Positions 1 to 36,235 of a stretch of DNA of 64,000 nt are shown one piece after another. Source of the stretch: a virus (lineage: Duplodnaviria; Caudoviricetes); IMG/VR virus record IMGVR_UViG_3300021431_000076, positions 96,001 to 160,000 of that record. One strand, given 5' to 3'. The notes beneath the pieces are model-generated. The model searched no databases and was not told where the DNA came from. It was given only the letters and a program-made list of their open reading frames with translations. The translations under genes and the position numbers were made by a program. The number at the start of each line of letters is the position of its first letter. Position 1 is the stretch's first letter.

Positions 1-182
1 TATGTATAAGATGGTTCATAAATTGTCTCATGAAACTTCTGTCCTGTATTGTTATCTTTATAAATCAAAGTTACATAGTCTTTGTCTCTCTTTCCAGTTT
101 TCTCATTCTTCTTAGGAAACGTATAGAATGCATTCATAATAGTGAGATTGTCTCCTGGCTGTCGTCCTCGTAACGCTAACAT
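1..182 (-). CDS. N-terminus of a gene truncated by the window edge (MLALRGRQPGDNLTIMNAFY...), possibly a jumbo-phage family B DNA polymerase/exonuclease subunit
   Basis: Not in ORF track. ATG at 182 follows SD AAGGGGG and a late-type motif at 207-219; frame is open to base 1. Product call rests only on recalled N-terminal resemblance, with no catalytic motif visible. Confidence 0.4.
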   Translation of the reverse strand, partial: MLALRGRQPGDNLTIMNAFYTFPKKNEKTGKRDKDYVTLIYKDNNTGQKFHETIYEPSYT

Positions 183-292
183 TAAATTTTCCCCCTTATA
201 TTTTTCTCATCTTAAAGTCAACCTCTCCCTCAAAAGAAAAAATAGATTGATTTTATTGATGATTGTAAAATGTGATCTAGGTTTACACCTAG

Positions 293-691
293 TCACATTA
301 AACTACTTACAAATGATCTTAATACTTCTGGACCTCCAACTAAATGAACAATAAAATTTATCCATGAGAAGTAACAGCATATTACTCCTACTAATAAACA
401 CAATATATCAATCACAGTTCTGGTAAGATTGCCTCTTATTATTTCTTTAGCTTTATTTTTATCTCCTTTAGCTGGAGCAAGTTTCCATTTAGCTAATACT
501 TCTTGAAAATATAAACAATATGTACAAATACCAGCATTAATTGCTGGAGACAGCATTTCCCTATTGAATAATATAACATATACAGCTACTAATGGAAATA
601 CTGCTAAAGATATCTTGGTAAGATAATAATAATTCAGATACACCCCTATTCCTACAGTTTTAAATATCATTGCTTTCGTATGTTTATTCAT
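293..691 (-). CDS. Hypothetical membrane protein (132 aa)
   Basis: SD AAAGGAGG, early motif at 715-722, several hydrophobic segments. Confidence 0.7.
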   Translation of the reverse strand: MNKHTKAMIFKTVGIGVYLNYYYLTKISLAVFPLVAVYVILFNREMLSPAINAGICTYCLYFQEVLAKWKLAPAKGDKNKAKEIIRGNLTRTVIDILCLLVGVICCYFSWINFIVHLVGGPEVLRSFVSSLM

Positions 692-739
692 ACTAAAACC
701 TCCTTTACATATTAATAGTATATGCCTGTTTTCAAAGTT

Positions 740-763
740 AAAAAAAAGAGACCCGAAGGTCTC
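740..763 (-). terminator. Intrinsic terminator GAGACC-UUCG-GGUCUC plus U8
   Basis: Perfect 6-bp stem, cUUCGg tetraloop and U-tract; identical hairpin at 3946-3961. Confidence 0.85.
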
Positions 764-770
764 ATTGGTA

Positions 771-812
771 TTACCGACGGCGTACTACAGAGCCGCGATC
801 AAATCGTGCCAT
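771..812 (-). CDS. 13-aa micro-peptide MARFDRGSVVRRR in its own transcription unit
   Basis: Early motif at 856-863, SD AAGGAGGTG 7 nt before ATG, stop followed closely by a UUCG terminator. Confidence 0.6.
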   Translation of the reverse strand: MARFDRGSVVRRR

Positions 813-855
813 AATATTTCACCTCCTTAAATACATTCATGTTATTATCACGACT

Positions 856-863
856 ATAATATA
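856..863 (-). promoter_or_regulatory. Early-type phage promoter TATATTAT
   Basis: One of about 18 intergenic TATA(T/C)TAT copies, all on the minus strand; matches the AR9 early consensus. Confidence 0.7.
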
Positions 864-883
864 TAATTGAAATATACTAGTTT

Positions 884-896
884 TACAAATAGATAA
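884..896 (+). promoter_or_regulatory. Late-type promoter TACA-N6-TAA
   Basis: Member of the recurrent NAC(A/T)-N6-TRR motif, upstream of ORF 920. Confidence 0.55.
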
Positions 897-919
897 TCAC
901 ATAAGGAGGTAAATTAACT

Positions 920-1930
920 ATGAAGCAGGTTATTGAAATTGTAGATGACGATAATGAGCAGAAAGCAGAATATGGGCTTTCTGCATCATCTTTAGTACAA
1001 GAGGGAAATGATGATGTAATTGATACACCAGTACAAGTTCCTAAAAAAAGAGGTCCAGGCAGACCACCAAAAAACAAAGAAGCTACTTCTAATACATATA
1101 CTGATATTGTGGTATCTGATAAGAAGAAAAATACCCCAAATAGTTTAGTAAAGGAATATGAGAAAGGATACTATGACAATGCTAAACTTCTATATGGTGC
1201 TATAGCTCAGACTGAACAAGTATATGCTAATATAGAAGAAGAGCTAGATAAATATCGTAATAATAGAGCATATGGTGGTAAGAATCGTGCCATGAATATA
1301 TCACAATTCATGAGCACACAAGTAGGAGTTATCTCTACTAAGATTAATGCAGTAAGAGAACTCAACTCTGTCAGAAATAAGATTAATGATCTTGTAATGA
1401 AGAAAGAACAGATGTTGAAAGATACTGGAGAAGATAATGCAGATAAGAATATTATGGATGCTTATTATGCATTAGTAAATGCTCCAAGATATGGATTACC
1501 AGCATTTAATCAACAGCTTTCTCCTACTACTATTAATACTGGTACTATGATATCTGGTAATCAATTACCTTCCTCAGGTATAGTAACAGCAGGTACTACT
1601 AATAGTATTAAAGCTGCTAGTAGCAATAATCCAATAGATAAGCAGTTTGAGGATTATCAGAACAATCTAAACCCAATACAAAAAAGAATGATTGCTCAGA
1701 ATGATCCTAATGTAAAGACTGTAGTATGTTATGATGCATCTACTGGTAACAAATGGTTTGATGTAGTAAATGTACAGACTGGTATGTCTATTCCTGGTAT
1801 TCAAAGACCAGCAGAATTCTTATTAGATGATATGAGAGTTGATACCAGAAATGCTATTGCAGTAAATTCTAATACTAATATGACTTTCCCATTAGTTATT
1901 CTAGGTACTAGAGCAGCAGATGAATTATAA
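920..1930 (+). CDS. Hypothetical protein with AT-hook-like motif and coiled coil
   Basis: SD AAGGAGGT; KKRGPGRPPK motif; helical central region. Confidence 0.75.
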   Translation: MKQVIEIVDDDNEQKAEYGLSASSLVQEGNDDVIDTPVQVPKKRGPGRPPKNKEATSNTYTDIVVSDKKKNTPNSLVKEYEKGYYDNAKLLYGAIAQTEQVYANIEEELDKYRNNRAYGGKNRAMNISQFMSTQVGVISTKINAVRELNSVRNKINDLVMKKEQMLKDTGEDNADKNIMDAYYALVNAPRYGLPAFNQQLSPTTINTGTMISGNQLPSSGIVTAGTTNSIKAASSNNPIDKQFEDYQNNLNPIQKRMIAQNDPNVKTVVCYDASTGNKWFDVVNVQTGMSIPGIQRPAEFLLDDMRVDTRNAIAVNSNTNMTFPLVILGTRAADEL

Positions 1931-1936
1931 AAAATA

Positions 1937-1965
1937 ATCCCAAGAGCTATATTAGCTCTTGGGAT
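1937..1965. terminator. Bidirectional terminator
   Basis: 13-bp perfect inverted repeat ATCCCAAGAGCTA/TAGCTCTTGGGAT between convergent genes. Confidence 0.8.
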
Positions 1966-1975
1966 ATTTAATGCA

Positions 1976-2131
1976 TCAATAAATAGCAACCAACGCTAAA
2001 ATTGCAATTACACCTCCTATAATGATTTTTACTGTCATAGAATCATCAATATTGACGATATCCACATAATTCTTTCTTGCTTGTAGAGCATAAAGATCTA
2101 CAGCCTTAGTCTTTTGTAATTTGATTTTCAT
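1976..2131 (-). CDS. Small early protein (51 aa) with C-terminal transmembrane helix
   Basis: Below ORF-track cutoff. MKIKLQKTKAVD...IIIGGVIAILALVAIY; SD AGGAGGAGG; early motif at 2158-2165. Confidence 0.7.
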   Translation of the reverse strand: MKIKLQKTKAVDLYALQARKNYVDIVNIDDSMTVKIIIGGVIAILALVAIY

Positions 2132-2178
2132 TTTTCATCCTCCTCCTATTCATAACTATAATATATAACTGAAAACTT

Positions 2179-3894
2179 TTATGTTCTCTTATTCCAAGTG
2201 TTCTCATCATTTTTAACTTTAGTCCACATATCATATGCAGTAATAATAGACTCATTGTTATGAGGTTCTGTATCAGTAACAACATTGTATGTTTTCCAAA
2301 GTTTATTCAAACCAGGTTTCCATTTATCTTCTACAGGATCAGGAACAGTTATTTCTGTATAAATATATTTGCTGTAGTTAGTTTTGTATGGAAGAACTTC
2401 TATAACTGTATCAATATCATATTCCCACTCAAGTCTAAGCAAATGGTTATAGTAGTAATAATAAGTCATTATATCTCTATCGTCTGGAATATTATCGTAT
2501 AATACTCCATTTTCTCCAGTATTTACTATAATATGAGCAGGATCTGTAGCAGAAGAGTCAGTAACAAATGCATCTGTTAATGGTTTGATAAATAACCAAT
2601 ATAAAGCTTGATGACCACTAAAATCATTATTAACCATACTAACGCTCATGAATAAATCCCCAAGAGTATAAATATCTATCTTATTATGAGCTAGATCAAA
2701 TACCATTCCCCATTCATCTGGCTGTATAGGAGTAATTGGACTCAATACAGTCCCAGCATTATATTCAAAATGTACATTATATATATTTGAATGTTTCTTA
2801 TAAGGTTCATGCCTTTTATGTGCCATATCTATCCAAAATACTTTTTGATTGGCTACAGAATTAATAGCACTTGTTATTCCTATTCTTACAGGTATTCCAT
2901 TATAAGCCATATGACCTTGAGCATTTACTTTCATTAATGCATTTTTAACTATAAATTCTAGATATATCTTTTGGTCTGTTGGAATAGGCCAAGCAAGAGT
3001 AGATATATCATTTGAATCTGGAGACCTTAAAATCATTCCTAATGGATTGCTGGCATAACTCATATTACTAGGACTAGAATGAATAAGATAAGGATTTCTA
3101 TGTGTTTGTGTTGGCCAATTAATAGGTGCTAAATCATTTTGAACTGTAAATCCAATATCAAATTCTCTTCTTACTGGAGGATTAGTATATGTATTTCCAG
3201 CTTGAAGAGAAATAGTCATATCAGTTATGGCTTCTTTTTTATAGTAATATAATTGGTACATAGTCCAATATCCTGCTGGAGTATATTTACATTTATACCT
3301 TCCAAAGTTTACTGAACCAGACAATAAGCCATCTTCTTGATATGTTATACAAAAATAAAAATTATCTGGTTGAGAATTTATATTAAAGGTAGTAGGCTTG
3401 AAGGAATACATTTTATCTCCTTCAACATAAATGGATATAGTATTAGCCACCGTATCCACACCAATACCAATAACATGATCTACACTAGGAATTCTAGACC
3501 CTAATCTTTGAGTATTTTTAGTTACATTAACTACAGCATTATATTGATATCGTTCTACATATTGAATACTAGTAGGATGTAACCAATCCTTAGGATCAGA
3601 ATAATAATATGGATTACAGTAAAAAATAGATCCTAAACACATATCTGCTACTAGTATACCACCAACAGATGGTTCTTTATGGATTCCTATATACAAAGGA
3701 AGGTGTCTAATCTTAGCATTAGAAGGGTGTTGTTTAATAGTAAATTCCATGTAAGCCTTAGAATACTTAGGAATAGGCTTACTGGATAGAATAGTAAATT
3801 TCTTTTTACAAGTGAACTTCTCTCCACTAACAATGGAATTAGATTGTACTGAATCTCCATCATAAGCAACAGGAAGAATTCTATTCGCACTCAA
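2179..3894 (-). CDS. Tandem SPRY/ConA-like domain protein, probably structural
   Basis: Two repeats with SPRY-like motifs (KAYMEF...VIGIGVD...VNFG and KIYLEF...WGMVFDL...VNTG); late motif at 3919-3931; TTG start. Confidence 0.6.
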   Translation of the reverse strand: MSANRILPVAYDGDSVQSNSIVSGEKFTCKKKFTILSSKPIPKYSKAYMEFTIKQHPSNAKIRHLPLYIGIHKEPSVGGILVADMCLGSIFYCNPYYYSDPKDWLHPTSIQYVERYQYNAVVNVTKNTQRLGSRIPSVDHVIGIGVDTVANTISIYVEGDKMYSFKPTTFNINSQPDNFYFCITYQEDGLLSGSVNFGRYKCKYTPAGYWTMYQLYYYKKEAITDMTISLQAGNTYTNPPVRREFDIGFTVQNDLAPINWPTQTHRNPYLIHSSPSNMSYASNPLGMILRSPDSNDISTLAWPIPTDQKIYLEFIVKNALMKVNAQGHMAYNGIPVRIGITSAINSVANQKVFWIDMAHKRHEPYKKHSNIYNVHFEYNAGTVLSPITPIQPDEWGMVFDLAHNKIDIYTLGDLFMSVSMVNNDFSGHQALYWLFIKPLTDAFVTDSSATDPAHIIVNTGENGVLYDNIPDDRDIMTYYYYYNHLLRLEWEYDIDTVIEVLPYKTNYSKYIYTEITVPDPVEDKWKPGLNKLWKTYNVVTDTEPHNNESIITAYDMWTKVKNDENTWNKRT

Positions 3895-3939
3895 GTTATA
3901 TTCCTCCTTATAGTCATATTAACCAAATGTCGTGGAGAC

Positions 3940-3961
3940 AAAAAAGAGACCCGAAGGTCTC
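3940..3961 (-). terminator. Intrinsic terminator, same UUCG hairpin as 748-763
   Basis: GAGACC-UUCG-GGUCUC plus U6. Confidence 0.85.
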
Positions 3962-3968
3962 AAAGGAA

Positions 3969-4367
3969 TTATTTGATAGCTTGATTCAACCAAGCTTCAT
4001 ATTTTTCCTCATTATAATCAATAGTCTTTCCATCAATCTGGATTGGTATATCTTGCCCTGTTGCTACCTTGTATGCATCATTTATGAATGTAGCATTTAT
4101 AGCTGCGAATTTTGCTAAATCTGTTACCATTAATGGTACAATGAGTAAACTTGAAATTCCAGCTTTTAATGAGATTACATACAAGAGTAAAGTTTTTTTC
4201 AGATTAAACCTTAAAAGTGGAATAAAGATTAATCCCAAAGGAAACATGATAAGACCTTTGACCATATCTGTCAATATAGCAAAACGACGTTTATTTAAAA
4301 CGTCTTGTTCAGCTTTGATCATTCCATTTTTGATAGCATTGGCATACAGTTCATGACGAATATCCAT
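3969..4367 (-). CDS. Early membrane protein (132 aa, start corrected to MDIRHELY)
   Basis: SD AAAGGAGG before ATG 4367; two hydrophobic segments; own promoter at 4440-4447. Confidence 0.75.
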   Translation of the reverse strand: MDIRHELYANAIKNGMIKAEQDVLNKRRFAILTDMVKGLIMFPLGLIFIPLLRFNLKKTLLLYVISLKAGISSLLIVPLMVTDLAKFAAINATFINDAYKVATGQDIPIQIDGKTIDYNEEKYEAWLNQAIK

Positions 4368-36160: not shown

Positions 36161-36235
36161 TGGCCCGCCTACCAAGAATCGAACTTGGATTAAAGGTTTA
36201 GAAGACCCTTGTACTATCCATTATACTATAGGCGG
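36161..36235 (-). tRNA. tRNA-Arg(UCU)
   Basis: Cloverleaf: acceptor CCGCCTA/TAGGCGG, anticodon loop CTTCTAA, T-loop TTCGATT, discriminator G, encoded CCA; late motif at 36247-36259. Confidence 0.95.

Follow-up and report, generated by a model that had tools for sequence, protein, structure and literature searches.

A probable movable micro-gene of 13 codons in a predicted early transcription unit of a gut jumbo phage

The short peptides trpL, hisL and pheL are leader peptides of transcription attenuators, and T4 Stp is a peptide of 26 residues. Tandem rare arginine codons and minigenes have been found to sequester tRNA (PMC2490762, PMC2034473), and in minigenes this sequestration falls with the length of the open reading frame (ORF) over 3-8 codons (PMC2490762). 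For early phage transcription the closest described system is that of AR9, in which the early promoter consensus was defined experimentally as AAATATATATTAT-(6N)-G(+1), with the core TATATTAT, and is read by an injected virion RNA polymerase; the late consensus of this phage is AACA-(6N)-TA/G (PMC5312081). An early motif as in AR9 was also reported for Staphylococcus jumbo phages (MarsHill preprint 10.1101/2020.12.14.422802).

Here we describe a locus that shares features with each of these systems. It lies in a stretch of 64,000 nucleotides (hereafter the window) that comprises bases 96001-160000 of record IMGVR_UViG_3300021431_000076, a gut jumbo phage genome of 332,775 bp with 31% GC. Near one end of the window, a 42-nt ORF (the micro-ORF) encodes the 13-residue basic peptide MARFDRGSVVRRR. 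Like T4 Stp and other phage and bacterial small proteins (PMC11364881; PMC13525628), its product is predicted to be directly translated, unprocessed, early and accessory, with a ribosome-binding site of its own and a conserved peptide sequence; unlike them, it has no homologue, motif or known partner here, and at 13 residues it falls below the usual range of gene callers and catalogues. We place MARFDRGSVVRRR, as a new peptide, among the phage small proteins already known as a class, where it stands at the very short extreme. Genes this short escape gene callers and protein databases and, if confirmed, the micro-ORF would count as one of the shortest phage genes that stand alone.

Anatomy and predicted timing of the unit

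The original prediction for this locus was a mini-transcription unit made up of a promoter, a ribosome-binding sequence (SD), a 42-nt ORF and a UUCG terminator 7 nt past the stop codon. All of these elements are present on the minus strand, and re-reading of the sequence returned the same coordinates. The features of the unit, in window positions, are as follows.

889-881, minus strand: upstream promoter element TTTGTAAAA, common to the genome's strongest early-type promoters
864-856, minus strand: early promoter core ATATATTAT (sequence reading), with TATATTAT itself at 863-856
855-850, minus strand: promoter spacer AGTCGT, six bases (sequence reading)
849, minus strand: predicted start G(+1), positioned by the AR9 consensus
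848-813, minus strand: 5' untranslated leader of about 37 nt, which contains the SD
774-844, minus strand: cargo segment (leader and micro-ORF), the sole part of the slot that cannot be aligned to the closest relatives
828-820, minus strand: SD AAGGAGGTG, 7 nt 5' of the ATG
812-771, minus strand: 42-nt ORF of 13 codons encoding MARFDRGSVVRRR, with ATG at 812 and stop codon TAA at 773-771
763-740, minus strand: intrinsic terminator GAGACC-TTCG-GGTCTC followed by T8, with the hairpin (6-bp stem, UUCG loop) at 763-748 and T8 at 747-740
730-719, minus strand: late-type promoter-like site AACA-GGCATA-TA before a 132-aa gene (691-293), the downstream bound of the unit

An in-frame TGA lies three codons 5' of the micro-ORF ATG, and the frame therefore cannot be longer. 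An independent assembly from another ENA sample (L017) is 100% identical to the region over 286 nt, which rules out an assembly artefact and brings no evolutionary information. Only three places in the 333-kb genome combine an SD and a start codon with an ORF no longer than 40 codons and a perfect terminator, and of these that of the micro-ORF is the most canonical. The exact GAGACC-TTCG-GGTCTC terminator has only two copies in the genome, one at window 763-748 and the other at 3961-3946 (minus strand).

The promoter of the micro-ORF has every element of the AR9 early consensus, namely the core TATATTAT, six bases and a G at +1. In a position-weight matrix built over all 150 TATATTAT sites of the genome (sites with TATATTATAG were listed too) it ranks 5th of 150, a rank that is partly circular because the promoter was itself a seed site. 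The phage encodes homologues of a multisubunit RNA polymerase, with two beta-like genes and one beta'-like gene; PF00562 gave two matching loci and PF00623 one, each above the curated cut-off. The claim that the downstream gene has a promoter of its own also holds, in that the 132-aa gene is preceded at 730-719 by AACA-N6-TA, the AR9 late consensus. This late-type site is kept in three relatives (L019-L021) that have neither the early promoter nor the hairpin.

The unit thus resembles the early units of AR9 and phiKZ-type phages in its core TATATTAT-6N-G, in the split multisubunit RNA polymerase homologues of its genome and in the late-type AACA-N6-TA site by the neighbouring gene. It differs from them in that it belongs to an uncultured gut phage whose strongest promoters add the upstream TTTGTAAAA and a transcribed GTGATAAAG, in that its product has just 13 residues, and in that its early timing is predicted. 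A distant blastn search with window 1-4000 gave no match among GenBank phages. We infer on good grounds, by analogy with AR9, that the unit would be expressed early, and its layout supports the reading of the micro-ORF as a self-contained, putatively early transcription unit. In such a unit the injected virion RNA polymerase would start at G849 and stop at the UUCG terminator, and its product would be a monocistronic RNA of about 108 nt on which the strong SD would direct synthesis of the peptide.

A second copy and the sequence differences between the copies

When the 83-nt core was compared with all the fetched loci by short-word search, one match was significant. It lies in a 95-kb contig (L022) of a related metagenomic phage; the 337-aa neighbour gene there is homologous to window 920-1930 (92% identity). 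This second copy is at a different site, L022 6977-6936, about 3 kb past the 337-aa gene, and it encodes the identical peptide MARFDRGSVVRRR. The two frames differ at 4 of 42 bases (CGA to CGT, CGC to CGT, GGC to GGT and CGT to CGC, from the window to L022); every one of these differences is at a third position and synonymous, with zero amino-acid change, and if read in the other five frames they would alter 1-4 residues each. Synonymous changes make up 29-31% of the possible single changes, which gives P 0.007-0.009 under neutrality for four of four, in a test that comprises only two independent copies (L017 being identical to the window) and four substitutions. By a rough estimate, that synonymous rate would lead one to expect several replacements in the eight non-arginine codons, and none was seen.

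Outside the frame the copies diverge. The spacer between the SD and the ATG differs by an indel as well as by substitutions, and the 3' spacer is not the same either. The SD of L022, AAAGGAGGTG, stands 6 nt before the ATG, so that the SD and its spacing were kept although the spacer sequence differs, and both are optimal in the two copies (7 nt in the window). The original prediction had treated the frame as coding and had proposed a short-word tBLASTn and synteny search for synonymous-site variation as a check; our short-word search found the L022 copy, and by its exclusively synonymous changes the frame looks translated and selected. The pattern across these two independent copies points to purifying selection on the encoded sequence, and selection would thus target the peptide rather than the RNA.

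The same comparison bears on the possibility that the product of the unit is a regulatory small RNA, about 108 nt long, in which the ORF is incidental. Such an RNA would fit a short transcript that has a promoter and a terminator to itself, and a core that is GC-rich although the genome is AT-rich. We consider it highly improbable, however, because the substitutions fall at third codon positions only and none is compensatory, an A-to-T change in L022 breaks a predicted CGAU/AUCG hairpin, and the 35-nt gap between the preceding gene and the L022 copy holds no promoter of its own. In addition, a search of Rfam (Rfam 15) over 740-870 gave no match even at E up to 10, and the GC-rich core has no complementary target longer than 12 nt in the genome. 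Folds were computed on the native sequences and on shuffles, and the native fold was not better than the shuffles (z-scores -0.16 to -1.28).

The place of the arginine codons invites comparison with the trpL, hisL and pheL leader peptides, which like the micro-ORF have 13-16 codons, a run of codons for one amino acid and a terminator close behind. In an attenuator of this kind, ribosome speed at the arginine codons would decide on read-through of the terminator into the next gene. Five of the 13 codons specify arginine, and three of the five form a tandem run at the end, directly before the terminator; the geometry suggests that a ribosome which has reached the stop codon would already sit on the first hairpin bases. 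Unlike in those leaders, no upstream segment pairs with either arm of the terminator, and the best and consensus folds, which hold no antiterminator, leave the terminator intact. The 7-nt distance from stop codon to hairpin is also found behind an ordinary gene (window 3969), and the element is present at another gene's end as well. The two copies are followed by different downstream genes, which have promoter-like sites of their own and show no link to arginine or tRNA. We therefore regard an attenuator as the least probable of the explanations considered, in agreement with the original prediction, which had seen no obvious attenuator here.

The surroundings of the second copy suggest how the micro-ORF may have travelled. 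In L022 the frame starts 35 nt after the stop codon of a 134-aa gene, and eight bases separate its end from the same UUCG terminator. At this site two relatives of L022 (L029 and L030) run directly from the stop codon to the terminator, which indicates that the micro-ORF in L022 is an insertion of about 76 nt. The two micro-ORF sites, in the window phage and in L022, are the two sites with exact copies of the UUCG terminator, and exchange via the shared stop-spacer-terminator module is a plausible route of movement. The cassette (leader, SD and ORF) would then be a small, movable element that lands just 5' of one particular terminator module. With an identical peptide at two sites, the micro-ORF is probably a real, movable micro-gene.

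The slot in related phages and a proposed role for the peptide

For comparison of the slot in which the micro-ORF lies, 17 related contigs were fetched; the divergent 336-aa neighbour (window 920-1930) has more than 120 homologues in metagenomes. A blastn alignment of L008 with the genome shows 90% identity up to window 773 and resumes at 845. The space in between, flanked by the same promoter and the same terminator, is taken up in L008 by a gene of 180 aa with the motif HENRH (3083-3622, minus strand), of which 189- and 191-aa versions are found in L018 (1063-1632, minus strand) and L038 (5290-5865, minus strand). This HExxH gene of the relatives, with the motif HE(N/L)RH and a length of 180-191 aa, is a borderline match to DUF6782 (putative metallopeptidase), and a weak match of the same metallopeptidase-like kind was seen in L009 (3014-3551, minus strand). 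The slot holds a membrane ORF and a 33-aa ORF in L023 and L024 and a 118-aa ORF on the opposite strand in L025 and L028, and it is empty in L019-L021, without even the promoter. Because its contents differ among relatives, the slot is a hot spot for putatively early-expressed cargo, in which the micro-ORF with its leader (774-844) is one alternative. By this comparison the micro-ORF is best described as a sporadic cassette in an accessory-gene hot spot.

Other contigs agree with a variable slot or are neutral. Contigs of four further gut metagenome runs span both flanks and then continue into unrelated sequence; the zero depth over 782-823 in these four DNA runs means only that those relatives carry other cargo. 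Two contigs from one study (L026 and L027) have 100-N scaffold gaps at 2875-2974, exactly at the slot, which are uninformative on cargo and suggest strain heterogeneity that breaks the assembly there. Phage-family and Pfam scans of the neighbour genes gave nothing useful.

Where the nearest relatives have the HExxH gene, the window phage has the cassette, which has replaced that gene in the same early slot. Origin of the micro-ORF by internal deletion of the HExxH gene was considered and rejected: comparison with the HExxH genes and with other gene ends in the genome and its relatives revealed no similarity, and no HExxH homologue was found in this genome.

Further copies were sought in large collections, in scans that may omit the window's own record and very near ones. 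An exact 27-mer of the micro-ORF was not found in IMG/VR. Strict and relaxed back-translated patterns gave no copy in IMG/VR, JGI metagenomes and GTDB genomes, and neither did a pattern of RRR and stop next to a UUCG terminator; from the back-translated patterns we take the micro-gene to be rare and dispensable. A peptide pattern without start or stop, run in the three collections, returned no parent protein containing the peptide, and the 13 residues have no fold, no recognisable motif and no homologue in the collections searched. A pattern of the N-terminal half plus the SD picked up four IMG/VR contigs with long proteins that start MARFDRG or MARFDSG. These use AGG and AGA codons, have no nucleotide similarity to the micro-ORF and are about as many as expected by chance, and we judged them a coincidence. 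In three IMG/VR contigs of 44-46% GC (L034, L036 and L037) long proteins of unrelated phages start MARFDRGKTL behind a similar SD, again with AGG and AGA codons, and this too we judged a coincidence. A match to the start of another gene at genome position 44885 was set aside, as it extends no further than the SD and the first codons.

Given such a variable setting, the micro-ORF might be a neutral leftover, that is, a functionless stub with promoter, SD and terminator whose presence at two sites would stem from recombination at the terminator that they have in common. The region is indeed very dynamic: in L022 a clean deletion, bounded by two TCTTTTTTG repeats (about 1665-1800), has taken the HExxH gene with its terminator out of the slot, and the neighbour gene, which has 292 aa in L018, is reduced to 152 aa by a frameshift in L022. 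Slot cargo differs in nearly every relative, the micro-ORF is rare, and its two sites are exactly those with the same terminator module. A leftover of this kind is nonetheless unlikely, as all four differences between the copies are synonymous while the flanks diverge, and as the stub resembles neither HExxH genes nor other gene ends and has no parent protein in the three collections.

We favour, with modest confidence, the account that the micro-ORF encodes an early effector that acts as a peptide and is carried on a movable cassette. Since it is predicted to be early, is sporadic and lies in a cargo hot spot, the peptide would act on a component of the host, most likely as a linear basic motif in host takeover or counter-defence. 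An early accessory slot in which related jumbo phages swap cargo is a promising place for such functions.

Arginine codons and other small early genes

A function of the peptide only leaves the exclusive use of CGN arginine codons unexplained. The micro-ORF has 23 G or C among 42 bases, a count that our recount reproduced and that only 0.2% of all 42-nt windows reach in this genome of 31% GC. Its third positions are AT-rich like those of the phage (GC3 33% in the window, 25% in the second copy), and the GC excess therefore stems from the amino-acid make-up and the choice of CGN, not from a generally GC-rich origin. The five arginine codons are CGA, CGC, CGC, CGT and CGG, all CGN, as had been listed. 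In 172 long ORFs of the phage, AGA accounts for 79% of arginine codons, AGR for 85% and all CGN codons together for 15%, so that the contrast, which the original prediction had drawn with the structural genes, is real (P about 9e-5 for five of five). Among the first genes behind early-type promoters the CGN share is 20% (P about 3e-4), and the codon habits of early genes therefore do not account for it. The sole tRNA gene of the 333-kb genome, a tRNA-Arg(UCU) at window 36161-36235 (minus strand), fits the dominant AGA codon. The all-CGN usage is a real anomaly, and some other early cargo genes are CGN-rich as well.

One way to account for the anomaly is a device that works at the level of codons. 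In this scheme ribosomes on an early, CGN-only and predicted highly expressed frame would use host tRNA-Arg(ACG/CCG), and their transit over the five codons would report on, or tie up, the host tRNA-Arg that reads CGN, as a sensor or a sink; alternatively, the arginine codons would fold back onto the SD, occlude it and so make the frame self-regulating. The codon bias speaks for such a device, as does its restriction to arginine in a frame whose third positions are otherwise AT-rich like the phage, together with the tRNA-Arg(UCU) that is the phage's only tRNA. The folds provide further evidence: in both copies the best fold joins the SD to codons 11-13 (CGC CGY C). In the window, the SD bases GGAGGUG (820-828) are predicted to pair with CGC-CGU-C (776-782, minus strand), and in L022 the T-to-C change makes a G-C pair out of a G-U pair; with AGA codons this pairing would be impossible. 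The SD has a predicted accessibility of 0.17 in the window as in L022, against a median of 0.54 over 31 early-type leaders, among which this value is third from the bottom. On weak in-silico evidence, SD pairing may be part of the reason for the CGN usage.

We find a codon-level device improbable, however. The micro-ORF resembles lambda bar and synthetic arginine-codon minigenes (PMC2490762, PMC2034473) in its SD, very short ORF, genome-rare arginine codons and proposed action on tRNA-Arg. Those minigenes act by peptidyl-tRNA drop-off in ORFs of 2-8 codons, the range of bar-type toxic minigenes, and weaken as they lengthen, whereas here there are 13 codons, the arginine run is at the end (codons 11-13) and the whole peptide is conserved. 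Conservation of all eight non-arginine residues would be needless for a pure codon device. SD occlusion amounts to an in-silico rank of 3 of 31, with folds that are not more stable than shuffles, and the other CGN-rich early cargo genes suggest foreign origin rather than design. The original suggestion that the gene drains CGN tRNAs is accordingly disfavoured, on account of the length effect, the place of the arginine run and the conserved non-arginine residues, and we retain the peptide-level effector as the preferred reading.

Other small units were seen in the same genome and its relatives. At window 1976-2167 (minus strand), an ORF of 51 aa whose product has a hydrophobic tail is driven by the early promoter TATATATTATAG (2167-2156); the unit ends in a 13-bp terminator at 1965-1937, and relatives carry a 120-121-aa gene there. 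A hit to NsiR1 proved spurious, as it arises from this 13-bp terminator.

Outside the window, at genome 30455-30520 (plus strand; L039 76-141), a TATATTAT-6N-G promoter and an SD precede a frame for the 21-residue, very acidic peptide MDDSEVIAGVYSEDEFGDDED, which is followed by a terminator. The clade thus holds at least one further family of conserved, stand-alone early micro-genes, with acidic products of 19-26 aa, which speaks for the micro-gene reading and makes tiny early genes a habit of these phages. In one relative (G001; L040 about 1571-1720) two tandem paralogues, 19 and 26 residues long, lie behind the same promoter and have in common the motif G(L/V)(W/Y)xxD(D/E)F.
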